Assembly (NCBI GenBank): GCA_965367815.1
Contig: CBDUKN010000026.1
Coordinates: forward strand, 1 to 33,362
Source of the DNA: an uncultured Thermoprotei archaeon
GTDB lineage: Archaea; Thermoproteota; Thermoprotei; Thermofilales; B15-G2
DNA length: 33,362 nt
Direction of reading: 5' to 3'
In this document: one piece after another, positions 2,633 through 33,306 of the stretch
How the letters are laid out: each line of letters begins with the position of its first letter
How positions within the stretch are numbered: position 1 is the stretch's first letter
The notes under the pieces: generated by a model
The model's database searches: none
Seen by the model: only the letters and a program-made list of their open reading frames with translations
Told to the model about the DNA's origin: nothing
Program-made: the position numbers and the translations under genes

Positions 2633-3823
2633 CTATATTATTTCAATTTTAATGTTAGTAATGCAAGCAGAAGACTGCCTAAGACATAGACTATGAATAT
2701 AGTGACTAGGATTATAACTCCACAAAGATGCTCCAATAATAGGCGTAATTATCATTAAGAAGCCCATTAAGCTACTCATTCCACCATAAAAAGATCCAAG
2801 AATATTACGAGGACATTTCTTACCAATATAAGACGAATATGAAATATAGTATAGTGGAGACAAAATTTCATTTAATGCAAAAATAAGTAAACCTAATAAA
2901 GGATTTAATGTACCTATAAATAAAAATATTGTCATTAAAAATACACCCACAGTGAAGCATGTCAAAAATACTTTCTTTTCCCCTATTTTATCTACAATAA
3001 ACCCTACTGGAATCTGTAAAAATATTTCAGATAACTCTATAGCAGAATACAACATACCAATAAATACTATATCAATACCTAAAACATTAGCAAAATAATA
3101 TGCTTTAAACGGATTAACAACAAGATTAATAAAAGAATATAGAATAACAATTAAAACAAATATTTTCATACTTATAAATGCTTTATAAAAGAAGAAAATA
3201 TTCTTTCTAAAAAGAGAAGCTATTTGTTTAAATACATTTATACGGCTGTCTTCCTTTTTAGATAGTGTTTCAGTTAAAGCTGTTCTTAAAAAAGCACATA
3301 TTATCAGCAGACTTAACATTATTATTACCACTATTTTAAGTCCATAAAGTTTCAGAATTAATGGGAAAAGAATCGAAGATACTGTAAGCGAAACTGATAT
3401 AGTAAGCCTGGAAATAGACACAATTTTACCTAATAATTCTTTTTTGTTGACTGATTTTATTAGTAGGGAAAACATGGCCGGGCTTTCAATTCCAAGAAGT
3501 CTTACACCAATAGATGCTAGTAAAAGTGTACTCCAGTTCAAAGGAAAACATAAAGGAGATATTAGCACTAGACTTACCAAAGGAATAATTATCGAAATTT
3601 TCTTAGCTTCTACAGTATCTGCTATTAATCCAGAGGCAAACATTAATGCATCAACTATTCTTGAAATAGAGTAGATTATAGCAATGCCTGCTGCACCATA
3701 ATGCTCCATAATTAGTAAACAAAGATACCAGTCAAGAAAGCCTATTATAAGAAATACAAAAAACCTAGATAAATATATTACTATGATATTGCTTAGTATA
3801 AATTTACTGTTATTAGTAGACAT
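2633..3823 (-). CDS. MFS transporter, probably frameshifted in the last TM helix
   Basis: Many hydrophobic helices; motif-A-like GLIADTVEAKK and GFIVDKIGEKK. After WSYNP (~2706) another frame reads VTIFIVYVLGSLLLALLTLKLK*, the expected final helix. Confidence 0.85.
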   Translation of the reverse strand: MSTNNSKFILSNIIVIYLSRFFVFLIIGFLDWYLCLLIMEHYGAAGIAIIYSISRIVDALMFASGLIADTVEAKKISIIIPLVSLVLISPLCFPLNWSTLLLASIGVRLLGIESPAMFSLLIKSVNKKELLGKIVSISRLTISVSLTVSSILFPLILKLYGLKIVVIIMLSLLIICAFLRTALTETLSKKEDSRINVFKQIASLFRKNIFFFYKAFISMKIFVLIVILYSFINLVVNPFKAYYFANVLGIDIVFIGMLYSAIELSEIFLQIPVGFIVDKIGEKKVFLTCFTVGVFLMTIFLFIGTLNPLLGLLIFALNEILSPLYYISYSSYIGKKCPRNILGSFYGGMSSLMGFLMIITPIIGASLWSYNPSHYIHSLCLRQSSACITNIKIEII

Positions 3824-4051: not shown

Positions 4052-4396
4052 TCAGTTGCTTTTTTCGAGTTTACTATGTGGAGTAACTATTTCATTCCAA
4101 TATTTTAATGCACGTCCTTGAGAAATGATTATGTCTGGTGAAAGTTCTACATCAAGGTCTAATAGTACTTTTAAGTGTTTTCTTACAGTAGCTTCTTCTA
4201 AACATAGTACTTCTATGCAACCACTTGCCGACCTAAGGCAGCCTGATGTAATTTTTTCAAACGTGGTTTTATCAGCTCCATTCGGACCTATTAGCGCCAA
4301 TATTCTAGCACATGAAATAAAAGACACTCTATTTAGTGCTACAACCTTACCGTACTTTTTACATAATTCTACGGCTTCTATGAAAATTCTCTGCAT
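4052..4396 (-). pseudogene. Truncated ABC ATP-binding protein
   Basis: IEAVELCKKYGKVVALNRVSF...ALIGPNGADKTT (Walker A G->D); no signature motif or Walker B; only 114 aa. Confidence 0.75.
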
Positions 4397-4554
4397 GAAA
4401 ACAACCCCTTTATACTAGTATATCTTGAATTACTGTCAATATATTCTTACCTTTTATAGCCAATAATGTTGTCGAGATAAAGCTACAAGAAATCTCTCTT
4501 TTAGGCATAACGCTATAGCTAGTTCATTACTCATTTACTTCCTTATTAGCAGAA

Positions 4555-4656
4555 GTGTATGTAATTTTGAAGAAGTTTAAAGAAGCTCGTAAAACAACTT
4601 ATAGCGAAGCTATTAGAGCCATGTTAAAGAGAATAGAGTTCATAAGCTTATATTGA
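4555..4656 (+). pseudogene. Possible remnant of a VapB-type/RHH antitoxin
   Basis: (E)VYVILKKFKEARKTTYSEAIRAMLKRIE resembles the EVYxxLxxxK...SxSxxIxxL pattern; the N-terminal strand is missing. Confidence 0.25.
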
Positions 4657-4820
4657 AAGAAAATCTCTTTAAAACAGATCTACTTCATTCTCTCGTTAAA
4701 GCAAAAGCTTTATTTGTGTCAAAACTAAGGGTAGTGAATTATTTTACTGCTGTAACATAGGCATTAGAGGAAAAGCTATTTTATATCTATTTTATCTTTT
4801 ACAATAACGGAGAGCGTGTA

Positions 4821-5870
4821 ATGGAATCAATAGTTGTCGAAAATATTTCTAAATATTTTTGGGCTAGAGTTACAACTAGCGAAAGTAAGCCTAGTTGGTT
4901 TAAAAGACTTATTTTCGGGAATTCTCTTGCTAAGGAAGTAAGAGTAGCTAGAATTACTGCACTTAAGTCTGTTAGCTTTACTGTAGGTAAGGGAGAAATT
5001 TTCGGTATACTGGGTCCTAATGGATCGGGTAAAACTACTTTACTTAAAATACTTGCGACAGCCTTACTGCCAGATGAAGGTGATGCCTATATATGTGGCT
5101 ATAGTGTTGTTAAAGAGGCTTCTAAAGTAAGAAAACTTATTTCGACGAATTTCTCGCTTATAGTGAATTCTTTTTGGACTGCTCGGCAGGCTTTAGAGTA
5201 CTGGTGTACACTAAACGATGTCGATTCGGCAGAAGCTGTGCATAAAGTAAACGAAGTATTGGATGAAGTAGGTTTGTCTGAGAGAGCTGATGAAATTGTG
5301 GCAAGGTATTCTATGGGTATGCAAAGTAGGCTTTTCCTGGCTTCAAGTCTTATGCTAGATAGGGAGGTGTATTTGTTAGATGAGCCATTACTCGGGATAG
5401 ATCCTATTGCAGCTAAAGAGCTTAGAGAAACTATTAAGAGAAAAGCGAGAGAAGGTAAAACAGTAGTCTTGGCTACAAATTTAATTAGAGACGTAGAAGA
5501 GCTTTGTGATAAAGTCTGTGTGCTTTATAGAAGTAGGGTAGTAGCCTTAGAGTCTCCTGAAGTACTTAAGAAGACTATAGGAGCCTATGAATGTGTCTAC
5601 GTCACTCTATCTAGTCTAGATTCTAGTGTATTGCTGAAATTAACGGATTTTAATGAGGTATTAGATTTAAGTATAGTAAGGCAAGATAATTTACTTGAAA
5701 CAAAAATAATTACCAATGATACTATTAAAGTATTATATTTATTATTAGATTTAGTTAAATTAAATAAAGGAAAAATAATTAGTATTAAGATTGCAGAACC
5801 TATTTTGGAAGATGCTTTGATAGAGCTATTAAAGAAGAGGTGTGAGTATGAAAATCGAGAGACTGCTTAA
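4821..5870 (+). CDS. ABC exporter ATP-binding subunit (DrrA/ABC-2 type)
   Basis: GPNGSGKTT, YSMGMQ signature, YLLDEP; GGAG upstream. Confidence 0.93.
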   Translation: MESIVVENISKYFWARVTTSESKPSWFKRLIFGNSLAKEVRVARITALKSVSFTVGKGEIFGILGPNGSGKTTLLKILATALLPDEGDAYICGYSVVKEASKVRKLISTNFSLIVNSFWTARQALEYWCTLNDVDSAEAVHKVNEVLDEVGLSERADEIVARYSMGMQSRLFLASSLMLDREVYLLDEPLLGIDPIAAKELRETIKRKAREGKTVVLATNLIRDVEELCDKVCVLYRSRVVALESPEVLKKTIGAYECVYVTLSSLDSSVLLKLTDFNEVLDLSIVRQDNLLETKIITNDTIKVLYLLLDLVKLNKGKIISIKIAEPILEDALIELLKKRCEYENRETA

Positions 5871-6699
5871 GAAAATAGCTATTATGGTTCTAAGTGATAT
5901 TAGAGTTGTTTTCATATATCAGTATGACATATTGTTTCAGGTTCTAAATATTATAATAGGGATTGCTAGCTATTATTTTATATTCAAGTATTTTGTAGTT
6001 CAAAGTACAGCTAGTATTTATGGTCAGGATCCCTTATCGTTTATTATTTTGGGTATGGCTACTAATTCTCTGCTTATAACTGCTATGCACAGTTTTTATG
6101 CTGCCGTAAATAATGCTTATTATAGAAGAACTCTTGAGAAAATTCTCACTACGCCGACTAGCCCCTACGTGCTATTTATAGGCTCTGTTATTAGCAGTTT
6201 TCTACCCTCTATAGTTACTGCTGTCACGTATTTAGCAGCAGGTGTAGTATTTTTTGGAGCAAATTACGGTAGTTTAAGTAACGCTGGAATAGCGCTAAGT
6301 ATTCCTGCTCTAGGTGTACTATGTACTCTTGGCGTAGGAGTATTTGTAGCAGGAATGTTCTGTATATCGCCTATGTTTAGACAATTATCTAACTTCGTAA
6401 TGACCCTGGTGAATTTATTTGCGACCACTTTTACTGGAGCACTATTTCCGGTAGAAATATTACCTTGGTGGATTAAAATACTGTCTTATCTTTTCCCACA
6501 GACGTATACAATAGAACTTGTTAGACTAAGTCTCGTTTACGGCCTTAATGCAGTAAACCTCACTGAATTAACTAAGCTTATTTTAAGTGGTTTATTTTTC
6601 TCAATAATAGGAGTTATATTATTAAAGAAAGGCCTAAATAATATTAGAAAAGAAGGCTTCGTATTACCGGAAAAAGGAATAACATTAATTCTTTCATAA
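5848..6699 (+). CDS. ABC-2 type permease
   Basis: About 6 TM helices; TLEKILTTP and GALFPVEILPWWIKILSYLFPQTY motifs; overlaps the ATPase stop. Confidence 0.92.
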   Translation: MKIERLLKKIAIMVLSDIRVVFIYQYDILFQVLNIIIGIASYYFIFKYFVVQSTASIYGQDPLSFIILGMATNSLLITAMHSFYAAVNNAYYRRTLEKILTTPTSPYVLFIGSVISSFLPSIVTAVTYLAAGVVFFGANYGSLSNAGIALSIPALGVLCTLGVGVFVAGMFCISPMFRQLSNFVMTLVNLFATTFTGALFPVEILPWWIKILSYLFPQTYTIELVRLSLVYGLNAVNLTELTKLILSGLFFSIIGVILLKKGLNNIRKEGFVLPEKGITLILS

Positions 6700-6741
6700 A
6701 ACAACATAATTATAATATTTAATATAAATGATCTAGCCCAT

Positions 6742-6960
6742 ATGCTTTGCTCTGTTAAATTAAAGCTCGCTGGAATAGACCCAGTTACACTAAACATTTT
6801 CCTCTACAACGCCTACAGTATTAGAGGAGACTACACAGTACCGAAAGTACTAGTAAAAGGAGATATAGTCAAGAAAATAGAGTATGTTACAGATGCAGAA
6901 CAAAAGAAAATATTCAGTAAGCTCACAGCTCTAGCCAAAACCGCAGGCTCATTAAATTAA
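6742..6960 (+). CDS. Hypothetical 72-aa ORF, probably the 3' fragment of a longer gene
   Basis: Protein-like composition, and an A/C-rich DNA patch distinct from the AT-rich flanks; no recognised motif. Confidence 0.3.
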   Translation: MLCSVKLKLAGIDPVTLNIFLYNAYSIRGDYTVPKVLVKGDIVKKIEYVTDAEQKKIFSKLTALAKTAGSLN

Positions 6961-8228
6961 AACATAAATAAGTATAGTGCTAGTAAAATTAAAAGAATGT
7001 TTTCACTGAGACTAAGAATTCTGGCTATTCTTTGACGTTTCATCTTTAGTATAAATATTTTCTTTGATAAAATAGAGCACACAAGCAATATAAAAATCAA
7101 AGGCAGTACGAAAATTAGATTATATAGTAATAGTAAAGATAAAACTACTGTGAAAGAGCCTTTTCTCATATAATATAAGGCTACTAGATAAGGCCCCGCA
7201 CTACAAGGAAGAAGGAGCAAACTAACAATTACTCCAAACATAAAAGCTAAAGAAACACTTACCGTATGTTTAATGTCCTCGCGCAGTCTTTTCTTAATAA
7301 ATTTAGGTAATATACTGACATTATTCTCCTTTATTCCTTTTATTAAAGAATATATCCCCATAAATAATGTTAAAGACGCAATAATATACTTTATAGATAA
7401 ACTAAACATATTAATAATTTTTCACTAGATTTAATCCAATAAGCAAATACATAATATAAATAGCCGATATGAAGGATATCCCTGAAAAACCATGTTTCTC
7501 TTTCCAGCTGCGTGAAAAACTATAAGTAAGAGAGCCGTAAAGATAGAGAAAGTACAAGGATTAATTGAATCTATAAAAGCACATAAAAGTATTACAAATA
7601 GTGGTATCTCAGCTTTTTCCTGCTCTTTAAAATATTGTTTTGCAACAAGGGAGGGATCTTTAAATAGTTTTTCTAGTACTACTATTTGCTTCGAATTATT
7701 ATATTCGATTATATTATTACCATAAATTATGATTACACCACTTTTATTTTGATATACTCTGAATATGTACCTCAAATATTCTATACTGTAGTCCCCTACT
7801 ATAATAAATTTAAGTTTATCTTCTATAAATACTCCAGTTAAAGGTATCAATTTAGTAGAAGCATATGGAAGAATTATTTCGTATATTGTATGATACGCTT
7901 CAAGATTAGTTTTGTTTACAGAAATATCATAAAATACGACAGATGAATTAGCCTGAAGGCTAGATATCTTCTTTTTAAAATCAACACATGCTGGGCAATT
8001 AGTTGCGCCATAAATATAGATCTTAGGTCCAGGACTAGATATACACTCATTCAAAAATAATATACTAAATATTGCGAGTAAAGGCAGAGAAATCATAAAT
8101 TTATTTGCAGATACATTAAATGTTGTTCTATGACATTCTTTACCGGAAAATAAGACCCTATATTCGTGTCCTATTGTCATCAAATATTGTGTTAAGAGTG
8201 AGTATATATACTTTGCTTTATTATTCAC
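6957..8228 (-). pseudogene. Thioredoxin/glutaredoxin-fold + CcdA/DsbD-type transmembrane redox protein, split in two ORFs
   Basis: IYIYGATNCPAC and cis-Pro loop IPLT in the N-terminal domain; DSINPC (ORF 7431-8228) and LPCSAGPY (ORF 6957-7409). Both ORFs are in the same frame. Compensating single-base indels in the runs at 7485-7489 and 7418-7422 restore TM segment SGISFISAIYIMYLLIGLNLVK. Confidence 0.82.
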
Positions 8229-8241
8229 ATTCTCCTTGGGA

Positions 8242-8262
8242 GAAAAAAATTATATATTTTTG
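8242..8262. promoter_or_regulatory. Putative bidirectional TATA element
   Basis: GAAAAAAATTATATATTTTTG, centred about 26 nt from both divergent GTG starts (8228 minus, 8280 plus). Confidence 0.55.
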
Positions 8263-8279
8263 CAGAAATAAAGTAGAAC

Positions 8280-8741
8280 GTGACTGGAAAGAAAAATAAT
8301 GATGTAAAAATAGTGAGCGCGGCACTACTATTGTTCTTAGTAATGATATTAGCGACTCTACTGAATTATTCTACTTATAAATCACAACCAGTCATGCAGT
8401 CCTCAAGTATAGCAAGAAGTCCATGCTATCCTTGTCTCTCAAAACTATCGCCAACTATAAGACCTGAATCATACAATGTTACAGGATGCCATAATTGTAT
8501 AGGAAAATATACGCCTTGCCCACCTGGATACTATAAATGTTACTGGTGTGCAGAATACGATAAAGTAAAACTAGCAGAGTGTGCCTTAGTGTGCGGTTTC
8601 TGTATTCACGCATGCCTAGAGTGCGCTGGAGGCAACCTCGCTGCATGCGGAGAATGCATTTATTGTCTATCTAGAGAATGTCCTTGGTGTCTTAATGAAG
8701 CATGCAAGAGAGTTGACTGGTCTTGCTGTGAGCCACCTTAG
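8280..8741 (+). CDS. Secreted/membrane-anchored cysteine-rich protein (20 Cys); candidate halocin C8-like archaeocin precursor
   Basis: Basic N-terminus plus hydrophobic h-region (IVSAALLLFLVMILATLL), then 20 Cys in the last ~105 aa including CALVCGFCIHACLECAGGNLAACGECIYC. Confidence 0.7.
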   Translation: MTGKKNNDVKIVSAALLLFLVMILATLLNYSTYKSQPVMQSSSIARSPCYPCLSKLSPTIRPESYNVTGCHNCIGKYTPCPPGYYKCYWCAEYDKVKLAECALVCGFCIHACLECAGGNLAACGECIYCLSRECPWCLNEACKRVDWSCCEPP

Positions 8742-8766
8742 TAAAACTGATATCAGGGTGATAGTA

Positions 8767-9012
8767 TTGAAAGACAACAAGATTAGACCTTTAATACCAC
8801 TTATAGTAGGATTATTTTTTACCATACATTCTGTATTACTTAGAAGAGATTTAATAAGGATATTTAACTGGTCCTTTCTTTCAATACTAGCGTTATTAAA
8901 TGTTCTATTCGTATATAATGTATTTAGAAACGAAAAAGCGTATAAAATATTAAAAGTATTACTATACATTTCGATTATATGGATCGTCATATGCGTGATT
9001 TTTATAGAATAA
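8767..9012 (+). CDS. Small 3-TM membrane protein; candidate immunity protein
   Basis: GGTGAT Shine-Dalgarno before TTG 8767 (in frame with ORF 8695-9012); three hydrophobic helices with basic loops; directly follows the Cys-rich gene. Confidence 0.6.
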   Translation: MKDNKIRPLIPLIVGLFFTIHSVLLRRDLIRIFNWSFLSILALLNVLFVYNVFRNEKAYKILKVLLYISIIWIVICVIFIE

Positions 9013-9039
9013 GTTTTTAAAGAGAATAATAGAACTAAA

Positions 9040-9460
9040 TAAAGGTATTTTTTATCTTAGTGTTATTTTAAACTATTACTTACAGCAATCTTAGCATAAT
9101 GTTTAATAATGTCTTATTTTAGTTTTATATTTCTCAATTATATGTGCTACTTTGTCACATTTTATGGCTTTGAAAGCTTTTTTAATACTAATATTTCTTC
9201 TTTAACTATTCTCTTTGATCTAAAATCTTCAGTAGACCATAAAAACACTTTAATGCAGATATTCGGGTTTAAATAATTTAATAATTAGCTTTAATTTGTT
9301 GAGCCGTAGATCCAGCTTTCAAAATAATATATTTCGATTGTTTTTTGGTTATTAAAACGTAGAATTATTCTTTCTATTCCTCTTGAATCACTGCTTGTGT
9401 TTGCACTAATATACATATAGTACATACCAGCAGAATAATAGGTAAATATTTTTTCTCATA
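9040..9460 (-). pseudogene. Heavily degraded gene with a signal-peptide-like start
   Basis: GGAG-aat-ATG at 9459, then MRK(frameshift)YLPIILLVCTICILVQTQAVIQEE*; further broken coding-like fragments downstream. Confidence 0.3.
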
Positions 9461-10354
9461 TTCTCCCTTTAATCCTGTTATCAGAAAGGAAATGTAAGCT
9501 TTTCACAATAATGAAGACTGTTCAGCTTCTGAGTGTTTACTTTTCTCTTTGATGTAAGAATAACATGAGAGAAACAATTCTTATAACTCTAGCTTGGATG
9601 TTTTCTTCTCAAGGACTACGATTATAAAGTTGTTTTAAACTTTGTGAAACTTTAAGCCAAGAAACTTAAGTTGGCAACATCCCCATAATATTGAATAAAC
9701 AAATAAAGAAACAATATTATGTTTCTGCAGCTAAAACTGTTAGAGAGGCGTAGAGTTTTTAGTTCTTCGTCTCTCAATAAGTTCTAATGCGTCTTGCCTT
9801 TTTATTCTTTTTATTATTTTCTTAAATATGTTTTGCTTTACTGTAGTCTTCTTCTTTAAGTTTTCTTAAAGCCTCTTCCTCTGTATACTCCGTTGGTCTC
9901 TTACGACCTTTCTTAATAAGTCGAGAAGAATTTTGCATCTTCTCTACTTCTAGCAGAAAACTTAATTATTCTCACATCTGTATATGAAATGTGTTTCTTG
10001 AAGCCATTCTACTCTAGCTTCTTTTAACGTCATCTACAACTATGAGACTTCTTTTGCTCTATGTTTGGGCATTAAGGCTACTGAAAACTTTACTGGTATT
10101 CTAGTGCTCTGAGTTTTGATGATGCTTGATTATACTAAGACTTAGCCTTCGGCTGTAGTTTTTCCATAAATTGCTCTTTCTGAAAGATAATACGTTTTTG
10201 ATGACTGTACTTTACGTCTACTTTAGCCCGCGAATCTAGGTCTTGAGCAATATTCCCTAAATGATATTCTACTTTAACTCTGTAACTATAGTGGCAAAAG
10301 GAGGTTAGGCTAATATTTCTTGTGGGAATGGTTTTGGGTGGAGGGGTGGGTTGT

Positions 10355-12329
10355 ATGAGGCGTAGGTGGGTGTTTGTTTTGCTTGTTGCTTATTATGTTC
10401 CGTTGTTGTTCTTCTTGTTTCTTGTTGTGGCGTGGATTCTCTTGTCTCGTAATATACTGATATTTATTGCGAGGCTTTTGTTAGCGGGTGTTCCGCTTGT
10501 TTTTGTTGCAGTTAAGTTTCCTTGGGTGTTTACTGCTGAGTTTATTGCGAGTGATCCTGAGCCTAATGGTGTGCTTCAGCACGGTATTTTTCCGTGTAAG
10601 GTTCTCTGTTACCAGGTTTTGACGAAGTATGGTCCTTTTAATCCTTCTCCGCTGCTGCCTTTAGTTAGGCGCCTTTATATCGTGAAAAGAGAGGGCAATG
10701 TCTATGTCTTGGTTGAGCTACATGGATTCTTTAGTGTGTTGTTTAGGGAGAAGGAGAGGAAGGTTAAGAGTATTCTTGAGACAGTTTTTAGCTCGTGTAG
10801 GGTTGTTGAGTGCTGTGTAGGGACTCTTCGAGATAAGTTTAGGGAAGCGAAGCTTTTTCCCGGGGACTATGCTAAGAGAATGTTTTACTTCTACAGGATT
10901 CCTGATCTCTCGGACTGTGTCGTAGTCGCATCTAGGGATGGTATAGGGGTGTGCTATTTAGTGAAGGATTTTTCCCGAGGCATATGTTTAATCTTAAGCT
11001 GAAGTACGAGTTCAGTGAAGTACTTTTCGGCGCTTTGCTCGAGAAAGTTTTTGAGGGTAGTTATCCGAGCCAGACGCCTGATTCTGCTGGCAGTGGAGGA
11101 GGAACGGTTATTGGTAATAGGATGATAGGAGACGTTGTTGCAGACGAGCATATTTTCTTTAAGCCTGGGGGCCATGTTTTAATGGTTGGTAAGACTGGTT
11201 CGGGTAAGACTACTTTGCTCGCAAATCTCGTTGACTGCTATAAGAAAATGGGGTTTAATGTTGTTGTACTCGATAGTTTTGGTGAACTAGCTAGCTTGGG
11301 TAGAGAAGTTGTCGCCGGGGTAGATTTCTTTGTTAATCCGTTTGACTTCATGGAGCCTGAAGAAGTATCAGACGTAATTGAGAAGGCTAGTGTCCTTTTT
11401 CTCGGAGAGCGGGGAGTGTTTTCCTACATGGTTAGAGACGTTATTGTGAAGGCGCTCAATAGGATTGAGGGGAGTGTTTCTCTGGGAAGGCTTATCGACG
11501 AGCTGGAGAAGATGAGGAGTAGTGAGACTAGAGAAGATGTTAAGAGTGGCTGTGACGCGGCGATAAGAAGGCTGAGGCTTTTCTATCACCCTGTTTTCGA
11601 GAAGACTTCTTGCCCAGAGATGAGGGGAGTTTTTGTTATTAATTTGAGTGAAATGAATTCTTCTGCTCGCTTCTTTTTCTCACATATATTGATGGAGCTT
11701 CTTTACCGTACATGGGATCCATGGGAGCCACTGGTGCTGGCGATCGATGAATTAATGCCTGTGGAGTATGTTCGCGAAGACCGTGTGCCCAGCATAGTTG
11801 AAGAAATTGCTAAGTGTGCGCGTAAACTGAACATTGTTTTTGTTCTAGGAAACCAGGAGTACAGAACACTGCCGTTAGCTGCGAGAAATATGCCTGAGCA
11901 CCTCTTCGTATTCCGAGTAATAGATGTTAAGGAACTAGAGTACTTGTCGAAGCTTATTTCAGGCATTACGGGAAGAAACTACCAAGACGTGTACAGAGAG
12001 CTGAGTATGCTTCGTGAAGGAGAATGCTACTACATAACTAAGAACTATGCGACGAAGGTAAAGATAAAGTACTATCCGCTGGCGTGGGTTAGAAGGATGA
12101 CTGTAGTAGATGACTTGAAGCAGTGGCCCGTGAGCACAGGGTTAGTGTTGAGAGGCTTAGGCGTGTACTGGCTCTGGTTTCTAGAGAAGATTTTCTCGAA
12201 GCCTTAAGGAGAAAAGACTACAGGTGGCTAGCTAGGTATAATTTGGCTCATGTGTCTAGAGGAAAGTTGAGTAGACTTGGCGAAGCTCTCGCAGCCTACT
12301 ACTCTGTAGACCTCTCTCAAGTAAGTTAA
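10355..12329 (+). pseudogene. Membrane-anchored HerA/VirB4/DUF87-like ATPase split into three ORFs (10322-11002, 10951-12207, 12123-12329)
   Basis: Two N-terminal TM helices; HVLMVGKTGSGKTT, VVVLD, LAIDE, GNQ, EGECY motifs. One added base near 10940 and one near 12118 give one frame (SRDGYRGVLFSEG; DDLEAVAREH). Confidence 0.72.
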
Positions 12330-12472: not shown

Positions 12473-13258
12473 CTAGAGTACTAGTCCTTTTTTGTAGATT
12501 TCATTGTAACCTATTTTGAATACTGTTAGACCTAGTAGAAACATGATTAGCGAGGCTATAGTGAAGGCTATGAAATCCGGATCTGTAATGGTCATTGCAG
12601 AAAACAGTATTTTTCGCCAAGCTATATACGTCCATGTGTATGGGTAGAGGAATGCTATTTGCTGTAGGGGTACGGGGAGAGCTGTTACGGGGAATAGTTC
12701 TCCTGAGAATAATAGGTGTACTGCTTGTCTCGCGAAGAGAATAGGTGTTTTCTTTTTGGTGATGTATGTTAGGCCGCTTTCGAATAAGTTGTAGCCGATG
12801 TTTATTAATATACATAAGGCAATGAACGCGAAGAGAGACTCGGGCCTCATATTTAGGCTTTGTGTTGAAGCCAGTATTACTGCGTATAGAGCAATTTCTA
12901 TCCCGGTGAACCATATGTAGGCTGATATCCACTCCTGTAAAAGTATCAGTGCTGGAGATACTGGTCTTGAGTACAGGTAGTAGAAGTCTCTTACAGTGAG
13001 CGGGAAGTAGAGCCTAAAGGGGTTTACTATTCGTGTTAAAAGAATTCCTGAGAGCAGGAATCCTAGTGGAGAGTCTGTGCCGTATCTAACGATTCCTCTC
13101 TGATATATTATCGAGTATCCTATGAAGTAGTATGTGGCGACGCTGAGAAGTAGTGAAGCTATGTTCGCCGCGAAGTTGGCTTTATACGCGGTGCGGGCTT
13201 TCCATCCCCCTATGAAGCAGTAGTACCAGATTGCTCTAAGCACGGTCTTCACTTTCAT
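12473..13258 (-). CDS. ABC-2 type permease
   Basis: Six TM-like segments; SGELFPVTALPVPLQQIAFLYPYTW; paralogue of 14239-15021. Confidence 0.88.
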   Translation of the reverse strand: MKVKTVLRAIWYYCFIGGWKARTAYKANFAANIASLLLSVATYYFIGYSIIYQRGIVRYGTDSPLGFLLSGILLTRIVNPFRLYFPLTVRDFYYLYSRPVSPALILLQEWISAYIWFTGIEIALYAVILASTQSLNMRPESLFAFIALCILINIGYNLFESGLTYITKKKTPILFARQAVHLLFSGELFPVTALPVPLQQIAFLYPYTWTYIAWRKILFSAMTITDPDFIAFTIASLIMFLLGLTVFKIGYNEIYKKGLVL

Positions 13259-14228
13259 TTTCTTCACCTTTTAGCAGTATTCTGAAAATATCGCTCAATG
13301 AAAGCTGTTCATAGGATAGTAGAAGAACTTTCAGTCCAGTAGACTTAGCTAGTTCTACTATAGTTGATGGCTCGACACAGCCTTTAATCGACTTCGCTAC
13401 AACAAGCGTCCCTTCTTCAACGTCTTTAACTTGCATAATTTCTGCAACTCCGTCGATTTTCTCTAGTAATTTCGCGAACTCTCGAGATTTTGGAGACACT
13501 TTTACTGCTATTTTCTCGTATCTCGTCAACTCCTTTAGTTCATGTGGGCTTCCTGAAGCGACTATTCTGCCTTTGTTTAAGAAAATTATTTTATCGCAGA
13601 GGTACTCTGCTTCCTCCATATTCTGAGTAGTCAGCAGTATGGTTTTACCGTCGTGTGCTAGCTCCTTCAATATATTCCATATCTCCATGCAGGAAATAGG
13701 GTCTAAGTGTACTGTAGGTTCATCGAGCACTAGTATAGGTAGTTCGTACATCAGGGTCTCGGCTATCATAAGTTTTCTCTTCATTCCTGTTGAGAAGCGT
13801 GAAGGCCACTCATTTCTCCACTCCCACAACCCTACTTTCTTCAAAGCTTCTTCTGCTTTCTTCTTTAAATCGCCTTCAATACAGCGTATTGCTCCTATTG
13901 CTTCAAGGTACTTGAGAGCTGGCAGTCGGATAAAGGCGCTCCACAGTCGCATGTGTTCTGCTAAGTAGAGAGCTATGTACTTTTCACAAGCTTTTCTCTT
14001 GAGCTCCCTGATGTCTTCTCCCATAATATATGCTGTACCCTTAGTGGGTTCTAGGAGCCCGCTTAAAATCAGGCAGAGAGTTGTCTTACCGGCGCCGTTT
14101 GGTCCTAGTATGCCGACAACTTCGCCTTTACTGACACTAAAGCTTATGTCTCTAAGCGCGACAATATTCTTCTCTCTACCGGTGTAGATTTTCCACAAGT
14201 GGTCTACAACGATAGCCTTGTTCTGCAC
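13236..14228 (-). CDS. ABC exporter ATP-binding subunit (DrrA-like)
   Basis: GPNGAGKTT, FSTGMKR, LVLDEPT, TTQNMEEAE. Confidence 0.94.
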   Translation of the reverse strand: MQNKAIVVDHLWKIYTGREKNIVALRDISFSVSKGEVVGILGPNGAGKTTLCLILSGLLEPTKGTAYIMGEDIRELKRKACEKYIALYLAEHMRLWSAFIRLPALKYLEAIGAIRCIEGDLKKKAEEALKKVGLWEWRNEWPSRFSTGMKRKLMIAETLMYELPILVLDEPTVHLDPISCMEIWNILKELAHDGKTILLTTQNMEEAEYLCDKIIFLNKGRIVASGSPHELKELTRYEKIAVKVSPKSREFAKLLEKIDGVAEIMQVKDVEEGTLVVAKSIKGCVEPSTIVELAKSTGLKVLLLSYEQLSLSDIFRILLKGEENESEDRA

Positions 14229-14238
14229 GGTCTCAACC

Positions 14239-15021
14239 TTACAGCACTAATCCTTCTCGGTAAATCTTGTTGACACCTACTCTAAAGACCGCCAAGCCTG
14301 AAAGAAACATTACCAGCGACGCGGCAGAAAAGACGAGAAACTCTGGGTCTGTGACAGGCATTCCGGCGAAAAGCACTTTGCGCCAAACTAGATAAGCCCA
14401 CGTAGGAGGATAAAATGACAGTATTTGCTGAGCTGTCTCCGGTAGTATTGTTATAGGAAAAGCTCTTCCTGAGAATTCTTCTAAAACTTCGAAAGCAAAT
14501 AGTACTGGGCGCTCTTTTTTGAAAACAAATGTTGCGCCTAATTCCATAAAATGTTGACCAAAACAAAGCAGTGTGCTCAGTGCGAGGAAAACAAGAAGAG
14601 CCTCTAGTCTAATGTTCAGCCTCTGTGTAGCAATGATAAGTAGAGCACACGGTATAATTCTGAAAGGAATTATATGAGTCGTATTAAATACAAACCACTC
14701 TCGGAAAACCTGTAGGTGCGGAGAAACAGGTCTTGAGAAAACATGGTAAAAAGTCTGCATATGGAGGCTAAATGCCCACCTAAAGCCCATGAATTCCGCG
14801 AGAAGTATTCCGGATAAAATAAAGCCTAAAGGTGACTCTGTACCGTAGCTTTGAATACCTTTCTGGTAGACTATTGAGTAGCCCCAGAAGTAGTATACTA
14901 CAATGCTTATGACGCAGCGCGCGGCTAAGCTCACGAACTCTGACTTGTATGCCTTAAGATTGTACCAGTAGTTGATAAAAGACGCAAACCACAGCATTCT
15001 AAGAACTTCTCTCAATCCCAC
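14239..15021 (-). CDS. ABC-2 type permease
   Basis: TM helices; SGRAFPITILP...FYPPTW; paralogue of 12473-13258. Confidence 0.88.
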   Translation of the reverse strand: MGLREVLRMLWFASFINYWYNLKAYKSEFVSLAARCVISIVVYYFWGYSIVYQKGIQSYGTESPLGFILSGILLAEFMGFRWAFSLHMQTFYHVFSRPVSPHLQVFREWFVFNTTHIIPFRIIPCALLIIATQRLNIRLEALLVFLALSTLLCFGQHFMELGATFVFKKERPVLFAFEVLEEFSGRAFPITILPETAQQILSFYPPTWAYLVWRKVLFAGMPVTDPEFLVFSAASLVMFLSGLAVFRVGVNKIYREGLVL

Positions 15022-15980
15022 TTCCCACCACCTTTCAGTAAAATCCTGAAAACTTCGCTTAAAGAAGGTCTTTCATAAGACATTGAGAGGATTTTAACAT
15101 TAAACTGACTCGCCAAATCTATTAAGGTCGCAGGCTCTACAGTATTTTTCTGAGCCTCAAGAATCAGTGTCGTATCTTCGGATCTCACTCTCAGTACTCC
15201 GTCTAGCTTTTCGAGAGCCTTCTTAAACTCAGGTTTTAGAGGACTTACTTTAAGCGAGATTTCCTCATACTTAGAGACCAGCGTCTTGAAGTATTCGGGG
15301 GACCCAGATGCAATAATGCTTCCTTTATGAAGAAATATTATTCTGTCGCAGAGGTACTCTGCTTCCTCCATATTCTGAGTAGTCAGCAGTACTGTTCTTC
15401 CCTCCTCACTAGCTATCGCCTTAATAGCTTTCCAGACTTCTATACATGACGCGGGATCTAAATGCACTGTAGGCTCGTCGAGTATAAGTATAGGGAAATC
15501 ATACATCAGCATTGCCGCGAGCAGCAGCCTTCTCTTCATTCCTGTTGAGAAGCGTGAAGGCCACTCATTTCTCCACTCCCACAACCCTACTTTCTTTAAT
15601 GCAGTCTCCGCCTTTTTCTTCAAGTCGCCTTTAATACAGTCAATAGCACCGACCATTACTAAGTACTTGAGGGCAGGAATGCGAGGATTAAGGCTCCACT
15701 GAGTATACTCCGATAGATAGAGAGCTATGTACTTTTCACATGCTTTCCTTCTAAGTTTTCTAATATCTTCTCCCATAATATACGCTGTACCTTTAGTAGG
15801 CTCTAGAAGACCACTTAAGATTAAGCAGAGAGTAGTTTTACCAGCACCATTAGGGCCCAGTATACCGACTATTTCGCCTTCATTAACACTAAAGCTAACG
15901 CCCTTTAAAGCAGTAATTTTCCTTCCTCTGCCAGAGTACTCTTTAACTAATTCGCTTACTACAATAGGCTGAACTGTCAT
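15012..15980 (-). CDS. ABC exporter ATP-binding subunit (DrrA-like)
   Basis: GPNGAGKTT, FSTGMKR, LILDEPT, TTQNMEEAE; paralogue of 13236-14228. Confidence 0.94.
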   Translation of the reverse strand: MTVQPIVVSELVKEYSGRGRKITALKGVSFSVNEGEIVGILGPNGAGKTTLCLILSGLLEPTKGTAYIMGEDIRKLRRKACEKYIALYLSEYTQWSLNPRIPALKYLVMVGAIDCIKGDLKKKAETALKKVGLWEWRNEWPSRFSTGMKRRLLLAAMLMYDFPILILDEPTVHLDPASCIEVWKAIKAIASEEGRTVLLTTQNMEEAEYLCDRIIFLHKGSIIASGSPEYFKTLVSKYEEISLKVSPLKPEFKKALEKLDGVLRVRSEDTTLILEAQKNTVEPATLIDLASQFNVKILSMSYERPSLSEVFRILLKGGGKWD

Positions 15981-16112
15981 CCCTCTATTTCTAACATAAT
16001 GATATTTCTTAAAAACATTTCCCTGAATCGAATATACCTTATAGAGCTACTGTATTCTTCTCACTTTTACAGGTACAGCTCAACTACTTATCGTGAAGTA
16101 TTGTTACCGAGT

Positions 16113-17521
16113 TTACTTGAATTGAAGGGAGTATAGTTTACAGTCTTTCATTTTAAAATGCAGGCGTATAGGCATGTTAGCGAATTTCGATAAGTCTGTT
16201 TTTCCTTGCCAGGAGACTGTTTTTTCGATGTAGTTTCCGTTGATTACGTCGCAGTCTTTTGTAGTGTAGCCTGGAATTGGTTTTCCGTCGGGGTCGAGTA
16301 GCCCTATTCTGAGGAAGCCTCCTGCGCTTGTCTCGACGTTTATTACTAGTTTTTCTCCGGTGAATATGAGTGGTCGTGTTATGGCTTCTCCTCCGGTGTA
16401 CTCTGCGTCGAGTGAAGTGAAGCCGTCGAGTCTTAGTATGGCTCTGCTGATGACTCCCTTGTACTTGTCTCTTTTCACGTCGTAGTTTCCGTGCGTGAAA
16501 TTGTATCCTGTGTAGTAGAGCCATATCTCGTCTTCGTGTATTATCATGCCGTAGCTCATGTAGAGGCAGCCGCCGTTCCAGCCGCCAGTTTTGCCTAGGG
16601 GAATAAATGGTCTTCTGTCGTGTCTAGTCCAGTGTACGCCGTCGCGGCTTACCGCGAACTGTATGTCCATTGGACCGTCGTTGTCGGGGTGCGTAGATCC
16701 CATTTTTTCGGCGACTTCTCTCCTGTAGTGGTAGTAAGCTGAAGGGAACATTAGGTAGACGTCTTCAGCTAAGGGATATTTGACGGCTGAGGAGTTGTAG
16801 AAGTCCATTGCATCGAAGAGATCTTTATCGAGGTGCTCTAAGTCCTCTTCGTCGTAGGAAAAACAACTTGGGCTTCGCCCCATTCTTTTAGATCATCGAA
16901 TTCACAGCGCCCTACTTTGCGGAGAGGAGCCCATACTCTGACATAGGCTACATACCTGCCTATCCTATTGTCGTAAAAGCATATGTTGTTAGTGTCGCTT
17001 AGCCTAAAGGATGGTTTATTGCTCAAGGGCTCCCACGATACACCGTCACTAGAAACAAAGACCCATGTGCCCGGCTCTCCGCCGGGCGGCTTATAGGTGC
17101 AGATCATTTTGTAGCGCTCGCTTCGAGGACACTTGGGATTAGTGTCTATGAAAACACAGCCAGGTTCAAATACTTCGGTTTTCTCCGGAGGGAAAACAAT
17201 ATTCGTTTCTTTAATTTTATTAAAGGATACGGCGCCTAGATTCTTTTTCTCCCATCGCACGCCGTCTTTTGATTCAGCGTAGCAGAGCCACCTGCTTCCG
17301 TCGCTGGCAATCGCGTCGTACCACATTTTATAGATTCCGTTGTCTTCCCAGACGCTGTTATACGGGCCTATTCTATGGCTTTCCCAAGGCTTCTCTGCAA
17401 CTAAACATTTTTCGCCAGTTAGTTTCTGTCTGTTTACAGCAATGTATACTCCTCTACACCGTTCTAAGAGCAAGTAATCTATAAACAGGTGTTTTTTACA
17501 GCCGAGATAAACTGTCTCCAC
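16113..17521 (-). pseudogene. Five-bladed beta-propeller glycoside hydrolase-like protein (GH32/43-like fold), split by one frameshift
   Basis: HLFID N-terminus; Asp-box repeats YAESKDGVRW, SSDGVSW, SRDGVHW; C-terminal LRLDGFTSL...beta-sandwich. One extra base in the A5 run at 16859-16863 gives EAQVVFSYDEED and joins ORFs 16838-17521 and 16113-16883. Confidence 0.72.
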
Positions 17522-31896: not shown

Positions 31897-33306
31897 TTAG
31901 TTTTTAGGTATCCATTTCTGTTCCTTAACAAGGTATATGTATGTTTTGGGATTATTGAGGAGCCTTTTTAACTCTTTATCATTTAATTCGACACTACTAT
32001 TAAACTTCATTATGTTGTATGCTGCTACCAAATCAGCGTTAAATTGTCCACATTTCTCACACACTACTAGTCCCCTATAAGGACGCTGAATCCGCTGACC
32101 ACACACTGGACAAATACTAGAAGTCCCTTTCTCACCGACTTCAATCACTTGAATACCTTTAACCTCACAGTGTCTTCTCAAAGAATCAATAATTTGTCTC
32201 GGCGCAAAAAAGTTCCTTAAAAGCTCTCTAGTAGGCTTAGAAGTAATCTCTTTAACCAAGTCTTCTCTACTGACACAATAGCACACTGAATTCCCTATGT
32301 AGACAATCGAAATACCTTTAGAAGCAAAAAACTCTGCAATAAGCCGACACATACTATTTACTGCCTTTTTCCTCACTTCTTTTGCCTTCTTCCTAAACCT
32401 CCCTGTCTTCCTTAAAAATAACCGATATTTACTGAAACACTCTTTCTCCCTCTCCTTATCACCAGACTCAGCACACTTTACTGCCTCCCAGAAATACTGG
32501 TGAGCAATACGATTCCTACGCCTAGCCAATTTCTCGCACTTAAGCCAATAGCTACGCAGTGTACCACTCTTAAAAAGCACTGAAAAAGATTCTCCACTAT
32601 CGCTTACACCACACAAAGCAACAAGATTCCTAGCACCAATATCTACTCCCGCAATTCCCTTTCCCTTAAGCCTTGGAATCTTTAAAGAAACACTAAAAGC
32701 AAAATACCATCTATTGTTCTTTTGAAAAACTTCCGCCCTATTTTTACCAAGACATCTCTCTCCTAAGACTAGGTAATTATCTGTTAAACAGTGTTTTAGA
32801 AGCATCAACCTCTTATTAATATAGAACACTAATCCCTTCTCTAACTCTGGAACCCACTTAACTTTACCTCTAACCTCTAGTGAAAAACATTTCCTATTAA
32901 GCATCACTTCAACCTTCTCAACAACCCACTCACCACTTTCTCTCCTAGAGTATACACGGTACTGTTCATTACAAAGAATTATTGGAATTCTCTTAAATTG
33001 TGGAGGCTTAGCTTTATAGTCACTCTTTTTGAGCTCAATGTAAGCTTTCCATGCCTCAAGAACTTTTTTCGCAATTTCAATTGAAGTAGTACTAGGTGCT
33101 CCACTCTTTCTAAGAAACCTGTAGATTTCTATTAATTTCGGGAGTTTACGATTTTCCCTATAATACTGTTTTATGAATTTATTTGCAGTATCAAAGTATA
33201 CCCTAAATTCTCTCAAAAGACTCTTCAGTAACTTCTCTGTTTTCTCATCTACCTCTATCCTAAGAATATTAGATCGAATTACCTCAACAAACTCCTCCCG
33301 CCCCAT
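31897..33306 (-). CDS. tnpB: RNA-guided endonuclease TnpB (IS200/IS605-IS607 family), rearranged RuvC-II type
   Basis: RuvC-I GVDIG; IVYIGN at the canonical RuvC-II position; EVGEKGTSS; Zn finger CPVC...CEKC; RuvC-III NADLVAAYNI; GGGGGTG Shine-Dalgarno upstream. Confidence 0.92.
   Translation of the reverse strand: MGREEFVEVIRSNILRIEVDEKTEKLLKSLLREFRVYFDTANKFIKQYYRENRKLPKLIEIYRFLRKSGAPSTTSIEIAKKVLEAWKAYIELKKSDYKAKPPQFKRIPIILCNEQYRVYSRRESGEWVVEKVEVMLNRKCFSLEVRGKVKWVPELEKGLVFYINKRLMLLKHCLTDNYLVLGERCLGKNRAEVFQKNNRWYFAFSVSLKIPRLKGKGIAGVDIGARNLVALCGVSDSGESFSVLFKSGTLRSYWLKCEKLARRRNRIAHQYFWEAVKCAESGDKEREKECFSKYRLFLRKTGRFRKKAKEVRKKAVNSMCRLIAEFFASKGISIVYIGNSVCYCVSREDLVKEITSKPTRELLRNFFAPRQIIDSLRRHCEVKGIQVIEVGEKGTSSICPVCGQRIQRPYRGLVVCEKCGQFNADLVAAYNIMKFNSSVELNDKELKRLLNNPKTYIYLVKEQKWIPKN

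Follow-up and report, generated by a model that had tools for sequence, protein, structure and literature searches.

A cysteine-rich secreted protein and a small membrane protein as a candidate bacteriocin-like module in a Thermoproteales-like archaeon

The cysteine-rich precursor gene and its membrane neighbour

The stretch of DNA analysed here, hereafter the window, is the complete 33,362-bp contig C26 (CBDUKN010000026.1) from the genome of an uncultured Thermoprotei archaeon (G000, GCA_965367815.1; 2.45 Mb, 99.4% complete, 38.6% GC). Its subject is a pair of adjacent forward-strand genes encoding a cysteine-rich precursor (8280..8741) and a small membrane protein (8767..9012), which lie back to back with a broken thioredoxin (Trx)-CcdA-like redox gene on the reverse strand. 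The precursor gene opens with a GTG start codon and, by the list of open reading frames (ORFs) and residue counts, encodes 153 amino acids (aa), of which 20 are cysteines (residues 49, 52, 70, 73, 80, 87, 90, 101, 105, 108, 112, 115, 123, 126, 129, 134, 137, 142, 149 and 150), confirming the ORF, cysteine count and core motif reported in a first-pass annotation of the sequence. Cysteine makes up 13% of this protein (P0001), compared with 5.8% in the next-richest frame of the window (frames of at least 80 aa).

The precursor begins with a lysine-rich N-terminus (MTGKKNNDVK) and a hydrophobic stretch of 19 residues (9-27; Kyte-Doolittle 2.58), within a signal or anchor region spanning about residues 1-34. 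No twin arginine was seen on inspection of the N-terminus and, together with the lysines and the hydrophobic helix, this points to Sec-type export or anchoring; the secreted or anchored topology proposed earlier is thus upheld, all homologues likewise carrying signal sequences. A CxxC motif (residues 49-52) lies just behind the signal or anchor and is followed by a disordered linker and a C-terminal cysteine domain (8475..8738, forward strand; residues 66-153, 88 aa, 18 cysteines, CPPGY motif), which is non-amphipathic by computation. The divergent intergenic region (8097..8279) holds an A-rich stretch (8240-8249) and a TATA-like element, TTATATATTTTT (8250-8261), ~26 nt ahead of the GTG start codon at 8280, a spacing that we read as that expected for a leaderless crenarchaeal transcript. 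Single-base indels at 8243 and 8249-8250 show that the A/T run in this putative transcription factor B recognition element (BRE)/TATA region differs in length between strains and assemblies, a difference that might change expression or might be homopolymer noise.

The downstream gene starts 25 nt after the precursor stop codon, also with GTG, and encodes an 81-aa protein with three hydrophobic helices; an alternative 105-aa form with an ATG start at 8695 would overlap the cysteine-rich gene. From its sequence and position this protein is a candidate cognate immunity or partner protein. Both ORFs are intact in three assemblies, namely the window and the metagenome contigs L022 and L023, which match it at 99.9% identity: the cysteine-rich gene shows zero differences, and the only change in the membrane protein gene is a substitution at 8882. 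Contigs from four sequencing runs contributed strain variants only, and the strain divergence of ~0.1% is too small for a selection test. The sequencing runs containing the locus carry the label hydrothermal vent, and no RNA run is listed among them.

Distribution of the family, predicted fold and a probable bacterial relative

Searches of increasing breadth recovered few relatives of the cysteine-rich protein. A word-indexed search with P0001 returned only the query itself among 12 candidates, while an exhaustive phmmer search of 1.84 billion representative sequences gave five matches at E <= 0.001, one of them a credible relative (P0002, 157 aa, E 3.8e-23). The remaining matches were the query and three proteins of 525-2461 aa (P0003-P0005) aligned over 5-12 short stretches each, of which P0005 was inspected and rejected as a relative since it contains no cysteine. 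With a profile built from alignment A2 (the three archaeal sequences), P0007 alone was recovered among 1309 longer candidate proteins, and profile A4 recovered P0007, P0010 and P0011 among 4477 candidates. Six-frame searches of 41 genomes from the order located the family in two; across the class, 3 of 120 genomes matched and two matches were credible, the third (G118, E 0.007) being judged spurious as it lies on the opposite strand of a 111-aa ORF that resembles a real gene. Pattern scans yielded one relative among nine matches in genome contigs, the loci of four relatives among 70 matches in metagenomes and none among 15 matches in viral contigs, and phage records gave no match.

Three archaeal sequence types are represented: that of the window (with L022 and L023), P0002 in contig L024, and P0007, a 280-aa form in genome G006 (L004/L021/L025) with a ~140-aa insert between the signal peptide and the cysteine domain. 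All three begin with a signal sequence, carry a short motif (CxxC or CxC) just behind it and have a C-terminal CPPGY/CPSGY domain, and within this archaeal branch the cysteine domain is 64% identical compared with 49% for the whole protein. A small multi-transmembrane (TM) ORF follows directly downstream in 3/3 types (81, 118 and 116 aa; at 1391-1747 in L024 and 953-1303 in L004), starting anywhere from 19 nt within the upstream gene to 25 nt past its stop codon, which bears out the proposed linkage of the cysteine-rich gene to a small membrane protein. These TM ORFs resemble one another only marginally (E 0.11 and 0.26; a single loop motif is shared), and as queries they found no credible relatives in the 41 genomes of the order.

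Family scans at E <= 10 (Pfam) and E <= 1 (NCBIfam) assigned no family to P0001, P0002 or P0007. The earlier suggestion of a halocin C8-type domain was not borne out: none of the three matched TIGR04449 (halocin_C8_dom) in the NCBIfam release, which is assumed to include that model, and a twin-arginine translocation (Tat) signal is lacking. The model NF033852 ('bacteriocin fulvocin C-related') was also unmatched by these three and by P0009, P0010 and P0011, a positive control (P0012) scoring E 4.2e-30. With the hidden Markov model (HMM) tests for both named families failing, the module is placed outside the halocin C8 and fulvocin families. Nor was there a match to an HMM of the DUF326 type, which we take to be the copper-storage, cysteine-lined helical bundle. 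The homologues, all with signal sequences and none matching a metal-binding, Fe-S or S-layer family, do not resemble the cytoplasmic metal- or Fe-S-binding proteins or S-layer components named beforehand as outcomes that would speak against a secreted toxin. No description of such a family was found in the literature searched at abstract level, a scope outside which the 2019 mBio survey by Makarova et al. falls. By these sequence comparisons, the cysteine-rich protein is a member of an undescribed family that is rare and patchy in its distribution.

The full-length AlphaFold2 (AF2) model was poor (predicted local distance difference test score, pLDDT, 58.8), with a helix at residues 4-34 and residues 29-70 below pLDDT 50. 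When the C-terminal domain was modelled on alignment A2, mean pLDDT rose to 83.3 (predicted template modelling score 0.59), with strands at 71-75 and 85-93, a helix at 95-116, a three-residue turn, a second helix at 120-140 and a strand at 142-151; the two helices reached pLDDT 88-93. The domain is therefore predicted to be a long alpha-hairpin clasped by a small beta-sheet. Cysteines 101, 105, 108, 112 and 115 of the first helix face cysteines 123, 126, 129, 134 and 137 of the second, with position sums of 237-239, from which we propose the candidate rungs 115-123, 112-126, 108-129, 105-134 and 101-137.

Three of these rungs are invariant across the three archaeal sequences of A2, and the variable cross-hairpin columns change in concert: the pair 105/134 reads C/C, C/C and I/S, 101/137 reads C/C, gap/A and C/C, and 97/141 reads K/A, C/C and C/C. 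Cysteine totals are even throughout, at 20, 20 and 22 in the archaeal proteins, 18, 18 and 20 in their domains, and 16, 16 and 18 in the C-terminal parts, starting at the CPPG motif, of the bacterial members described below. The joint gain and loss of facing cysteines and the even counts together suggest a disulfide ladder, and the aligned sequences support pairwise coupling across the hairpin, most simply as disulfides. The helical hairpin with facing cysteines anticipated in the first-pass annotation accordingly gained support from both the AF2 model and the concerted cysteine changes. Structure-based searches returned no close counterpart: Foldseek with the full-length model gave nothing in the PDB at E <= 0.001, a wide VIA-align search with the domain model reached at best Z 6.6 to generic helical hairpins, below the meaningful level for helical models, a PDB sequence search with alignment A4 gave nothing under E 0.2, and the ESM Atlas provided no usable match.

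A tblastn search with P0001 of 72,556 plasmid records (7.3 Gb) produced one match (E 2e-3), on the megaplasmid of Thermomicrobium roseum DSM 5159 (L038; NC_011961.1, 672041-682256). The protein encoded there (P0009; 339 aa, annotated hypothetical) has a C-terminal module that opens with CPPGY and closes with CC-x-E-x-PP, as do the archaeal proteins. It scored E 5e-6 by BLASTP and, on the megaplasmid record, E 8.7e-4 with an archaeal-only profile, and an hhalign comparison of the archaeal domain with the Thermomicrobium group gave 93.3% (E 2.8e-7) over 63 columns. The archaeal cysteine domain is thus probably homologous to the C-terminus of P0009, as judged from these alignments.

P0011, a relative from a metagenome, is identical to P0009 at 273 of 275 positions up to a QRCC junction and at 33 of 65 after it. 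L038 further contains three unannotated orphan cysteine-rich C-terminal cassettes (5594-5890, 6451-6663 and 7022-7336), one of which starts exactly at the QRCC junction without a start codon, and between the cysteine modules lie five small TM ORFs (locus coordinates 4212-8248). An S8 peptidase, a major facilitator superfamily (MFS) transporter and a helix-turn-helix regulator lie upstream of the array. Polymorphic toxin systems are described as combining a constant N-terminal part with an exchanged C-terminal module, along with orphan cassettes and one gene behind each module (PMC8416519), a layout that the Thermomicrobium proteins and locus share. From its sequence, the L038 array looks like an undescribed polymorphic bacteriocin locus.

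The N-terminal part of P0009 (residues 1-135) comprises a CxxC domain and a Tat-like signal (TIGR01409, E 0.017, below cut-off), and a plasmid protein from Streptomyces has an N-terminus 38% identical to it (E 1e-16); the rest of that protein matches NF033852 (E 4.2e-30). This shared part indicates one carrier joined to two unrelated cysteine-rich ends, one of them a recognized bacteriocin family, and the CxxC domain and TM ORFs indicate that the bacterial domain, too, is accompanied by a thiol-redox module and a gene for a small membrane protein. The name DCC-type thiol-disulfide oxidoreductase was considered for this CxxC domain and dropped, as a Pfam scan of P0009 at E <= 10 contained no such match.

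The thioredoxin-CcdA-like gene and the low-GC island

The redox gene on the reverse strand is preserved in pieces. Its 5' piece (7431..8228, 265 aa) encodes a signal or anchor, a thioredoxin-like domain with CPAC and a first membrane helix with DSINPC, although comparison with homologues places the true start probably at the ATG at 8096. The second membrane helix (7411..7557) can be read from a three-frame translation in a different frame, and the 3' piece (6957..7409, 150 aa) contains membrane helices with LLPCSAGPY. With the intact 381-aa homologue in L012 as reference, the 5' and 3' pieces occupy the same frame with stops between them and the middle helix is readable in another frame only, indicating two compensating frameshifts, at ~7490-7500 and 7395-7430. 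Identical breaks occur in L022, L023 and contigs of runs X1 and X2, and their recurrence in independent assemblies makes an assembly error unlikely; an extra base at 7091, a third frameshift, is found in L022 and X1. The decay suspected in the first-pass annotation is therefore borne out, the frameshift it described giving way to two compensating ones around pieces that share one frame.

Relatives of this gene are present in 37 of 61 related genomes, the intact forms (381-409 aa) consisting of a signal or anchor, a thioredoxin-like domain with CxxC and a membrane domain of several helices in which two Pro-Cys motifs occur. The hallmark of CcdA/DsbD proteins is a pair of conserved cysteines, each following a proline, within transmembrane helices; in the alignment of eight homologues (A6), N181-P182-C183 and L298-P299-C300 are invariant, matching this hallmark, as are the CxxC cysteines C40 and C43. 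Matches to named families stayed below cut-off, with Glrx-like PF05768 at E 0.0091 to the 5' piece, PF02683 (DsbD_TM) at E 0.0019 and 18 bits (cut-off 27.1) in one of eight intact homologues, NF001419 (DsbD) at E 0.0017 and 17 bits (cut-off 330) for 6957-7409, and SfLAP in two of eight homologues; the DsbD-type matches are weak but fall where they would be expected. The redox profile likewise gave weak glutaredoxin or thioredoxin matches only in the PDB (E 0.04-0.8), and PF02683 had no match in the genome at E <= 0.01. The CxxCH haem-binding motif of c-type cytochromes, the usual CcdA client, is absent from the 153-aa cysteine-rich sequence.

A Trx-CcdA-like gene adjoins the cysteine-rich gene in 2/3 archaeal types, divergently in the window and downstream on the same strand in L024, which agrees with the linkage put forward earlier; contigs of the third type, in G006, are too short to show such a neighbour, with 128 nt upstream and 311-455 nt downstream. 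The redox gene of L024 resembles the resident-type gene of G004 (L014; 38%, E 2e-41) more than that of the window (30%, E 1e-21), and in L024 the cysteine-rich/TM pair lies between two genes that adjoin directly in G004. The involvement of different paralogues in different arrangements indicates that the linkage arose or was kept independently.

The closest outside relative of the window redox gene (E 1.3e-34) lies in G008, within an analogous trio of a 381-aa Trx-CcdA gene, a 152-aa signal-peptide protein with 14 cysteines and a 237-aa multi-TM protein; the cysteine proteins of the window and of this trio have no detectable similarity. Among nine Trx-CcdA loci (L012-L020), a neighbour of this kind occurs within 1.5 kb in L012 only. 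Three of the nine adjoin a ~333-aa protein with a dinucleotide-binding N-terminus, which we read as thioredoxin-reductase-like and which would fit a housekeeping reductive pathway. The genome of the window holds a single paralogue (C6:42400-43524) that is 42% identical to the window copy and broken into three pieces at different sites, and no Trx-CcdA match was found in the same-genus genome G001, which is 85% complete.

Within the order's family f5 (L005-L009 among others), a Trx-CcdA-like module lies within frames of 718-999 aa, which suggests fusion to further domains. Elsewhere in the window's own genome (L034; G000:C3:77348-80578, 1468-2248), a 140-aa signal-peptide protein with eight cysteines precedes a membrane protein of 104 aa; weak similarity (E 1.6e-4) links it to the cysteine protein of the G008 trio, and it may belong to the same general kind of module.

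The locus sits in a low-GC island (~2.1-10.3 kb) with gene GC contents of 25-35%, the genes neighbouring the locus having 25-29% compared with 38.6% for the genome. The island is not found at the corresponding place in G001, where a contig matches 10306-12331 at 89% with a different gene upstream. It also encodes an MFS transporter (2633-3823, reverse strand), a truncated ATP-binding cassette (ABC) ATPase fragment recognized in the Pfam scan (4052-4396, reverse strand) and a DrrA/DrrB-type ABC-2 exporter pair (4821-6699, forward strand) on the same strand as, and upstream of, the cysteine-rich gene. By analogy with halocin C8 loci, which also carry ABC genes, this exporter might serve the cysteine-rich protein; the 2.5 kb of L024 do not contain it, and a conserved link is not evident. 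The family scan found no protease gene in the window, proteolysis being what frees the C-terminal peptide in halocin C8-like systems.

Downstream of the gene pair, ~1.3 kb (9013-10320; GC ~28%) contains no ORF of at least 60 aa and is probably decayed coding sequence of the island. GC content then jumps from ~28% to 41-45% at 10322-12207, the edge of the variable island, where forward-strand genes for a membrane protein (226 aa) and a HerA/VirB4-like P-loop ATPase (418 aa) have 89% DNA identity to G001. Beside the island is a second variable segment (12473-17521, reverse strand), an ORF block with two ABC ATPase genes (13236-14228 and 15012-15980) that is largely missing in G001, only its edges matching. 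The right end of the contig carries a 469-aa TnpB/Cas12f-like OrfB_IS605 protein (31897-33306, reverse strand).

A candidate archaeocin module and its alternatives

We put at about even the chance that the pair at 8280-8741 and 8767-9012 represents an undescribed family of bacteriocin-like (archaeocin) modules, with a membrane protein conferring immunity. Under this reading the 153-aa precursor would be exported unfolded through Sec, as its N-terminus suggests, and the 88-aa domain would fold outside the cell, locked by about nine disulfides, five of them forming the inter-helix ladder. The hyperstable domain, released or tethered, would then act on neighbouring cells, as suggested by the context of the bacterial homologue, while the downstream three-helix membrane protein would protect the producer, a role read from its position only. 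With so many cysteines to pair, electrons for shuffling or proof-reading the disulfides would come from the neighbouring Trx-CcdA-like oxidoreductase, which is extracytoplasmic. The polymorphic-toxin-like array around P0009, and the carrier it has in common with fulvocin-C-related precursors, add support to a toxin. The toxin, immunity and maturation module envisaged in the first-pass annotation is supported in part, its topology, hairpin, linkages and decay standing and its halocin C8 type falling away.

Several known systems offer points of comparison. Like halocin C8, which has 10 cysteines, the candidate toxin is a cysteine-rich C-terminal domain of a secreted precursor, although the archaeal domain has 18-20. 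The halocin C8 precursor ProC8 has 283 aa, its loci carry ABC genes and its domain is modelled by TIGR04449 (bioRxiv 10.64898/2026.07.27.741052). P0007 (280 aa) resembles ProC8 in its succession of signal, ~140-aa middle part and cysteine-rich end, and the window locus resembles halocin C8 loci in having ABC transporter genes nearby (4821-6699). In contrast to halocin C8, the window protein has a Sec-type rather than Tat-type N-terminus, the candidate immunity function would lie in a separate small membrane protein rather than in the N-terminal part of the precursor, and the host is a non-halophilic, Thermoproteales-like archaeon. Fulvocins are named among myxobacterial RiPPs (peptides made on the ribosome and modified afterwards) in PMC8708641, whose reference list includes the bacteriocin papers Hirsch 1977 and Tsai & Hirsch 1981. 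P0009 shares with the fulvocin-C-related precursors of NF033852 its N-terminal module and the presence of a cysteine-rich C-terminal end, but the C-terminal modules themselves are unrelated, and the archaeal proteins have no counterpart of the N-terminal CxxC domain, only the short motif (CxxC or CxC) that follows their signal peptide.

The Thermomicrobium branch exhibits all positional hallmarks of polymorphic toxin systems. It departs from them in that the module is a ~65-75-aa domain predicted to be disulfide-rich rather than an enzyme and that neither a dedicated secretion system nor an Rhs/YD-type delivery part was observed, and the archaeal members differ further in being single-copy without orphan cassettes. 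Disulfide-stapled hairpins are known from plant alpha-hairpinins, CHCH twin-Cx9C proteins and glycocin/sublancin-type bacteriocins, with two disulfides each; the predicted archaeal fold similarly ties two antiparallel helices between facing cysteines, but with five proposed rungs in ~45 residues plus pairs in the flanking strands. The redox gene resembles DsbD/CcdA conduits (CcdA-ResA, DsbD-DsbC, ScsB-ScsC) in fusing an extracytoplasmic CxxC Trx-like domain to a membrane domain, and differs in its strong divergence and Trx-first fusion order. A broader proposal, that these are cross-domain miniature polymorphic toxins in which five-rung, disulfide-laddered hairpin cassettes are paired with membrane immunity proteins and, in archaea, have repeatedly been wired to the extracytoplasmic Trx-CcdA reductase for oxidative folding, is one we hold only tentatively, as less likely than not. 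On that proposal the family would be the first of protein archaeocins in Thermoproteales-like hyperthermophiles, with an ancestry in common with a Thermomicrobium bacteriocin.

A number of observations weigh against the archaeocin interpretation, for which the case is entirely computational and the family tiny. The link to T. roseum rests on ~65 cysteine-rich columns, a composition that may inflate the scores. Archaeal N-terminal parts are less conserved than the cysteine domain, the reverse of the polymorphic pattern, and the family profile matches once in the window's own genome, with no orphan cassette. Homology between the small TM proteins is not demonstrable, either among the archaeal ones or with those of L038. 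The cysteine domain is acidic (pI 4.3-5.6, computed with free cysteines), and most pore-forming bacteriocins differ in this respect. Evidence for the ladder has its own limits, as the concerted cysteine changes come from three sequences only, with an estimated chance of 1/27 to 1/6. A single-sequence ladder statistic was unremarkable in five of six proteins, where 63-118 of 500 random placements were as good, P0001 alone standing out with 4 of 500, and was dropped for failing to discriminate. Stable extracellular disulfides are also no given in the vent setting of the sequencing runs. Finally, both Trx-CcdA copies of the genome are broken, so the cysteine-rich gene is either independent of the reductase or a survivor in a decaying island; judging by the broken genes, the lineage may be losing its extracytoplasmic redox pathway.

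The chemistry of the neighbouring redox gene bears on a different function for the protein. CcdA-type proteins are conduits that export reducing equivalents rather than oxidases, and a VKOR search of the genome found none, other oxidases being outside that search. Of the disulfide maturation proposed in the first-pass annotation, isomerization or proof-reading is thus conceivable, and oxidation is disfavoured. These observations suit a surface-exposed protein with reduced thiols, fed by Trx-CcdA and anchored or partnered by the small membrane protein, which would bind metal or sulfur species as a metallothionein-like or copper-storage-like sink or as a polysulfide carrier in metal- and sulfide-rich vent fluid. 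Layers of a metal-thiolate core would fit the cysteines on one face of each helix, and the co-variation of facing positions, equally well, and the acidity of the domain and the vent label of the runs point the same way. We nevertheless regard such a thiol protein, in any of these variants, as quite unlikely, given that no metal-binding family was matched (the DUF326 type included), that the CxxCH motif is lacking and that the cysteine-rich gene is intact though both Trx-CcdA copies are dead. The patchy distribution and the bacterial cassette swapping with orphan modules are moreover typical of conflict systems, and the N-terminal module of P0009 is common to a bacteriocin precursor family.

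That last argument, along with the rarity of the family (2 of 41 genomes of the order), the provision of one small TM gene per cassette, as in cognate immunity, and the S8 peptidase and MFS exporter adjoining the bacterial array, also disfavours a non-lethal extracellular module for surface, adhesion, self-recognition or signalling functions. Here the small membrane protein would be a receptor or anchor and the Thermomicrobium layout would reflect diversifying selection on recognition rather than killing. This explanation, which we consider unlikely, draws on the lack, in our reading, of an obvious signal-peptidase site in the window protein, which may therefore stay membrane-anchored, on the acidic and non-amphipathic domain, and on a structure search that gave generic helical hairpins only and no toxin fold. 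Variable C-terminal modules with membrane neighbours are also discussed for archaeal non-toxin recognition (PMC8416519). Compatible with any of these functions, the window copy itself could be a non-functional relic of the decaying low-GC island, an outcome that seems possible though well short of probable. Signs of decay surround it, in the two frameshifts of the adjacent Trx-CcdA gene with a third in one strain, the ABC ATPase fragment at 4052-4396, the absence of an ORF of at least 60 aa from 9.0 to 10.3 kb, the absence of the island from the corresponding place in G001 and the deviating GC content of the neighbouring genes (25-29% against 38.6%). Both ORFs of the pair are nonetheless intact and identical in three assemblies apart from the substitution at 8882, the putative TATA-like element stands at the expected distance, and the ~0.1% strain divergence is too low for selection to be tested.

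To our knowledge, archaeal protein antibiotics are known almost only from haloarchaea and Sulfolobales. If the archaeocin interpretation is true, this picture would broaden to include Thermoproteales-like archaea of vents, with a family of secreted toxins locked by disulfides. Given the polymorphic-toxin-like behaviour of the relative from a thermophilic bacterium and the fulvocin-type carrier fused to it, it would also provide a testable case of weapon sharing between domains. T. roseum DSM 5159 is a culture-collection strain, so the bacterial branch is directly testable on the assumption that the strain can be grown and manipulated. The domain itself would be a compact and probably hyperstable scaffold, with about nine disulfides in 88 residues, and the Trx-CcdA neighbourhood would offer a handle on how extracellular multi-disulfide proteins fold in archaea without DsbA/DsbB or VKOR.

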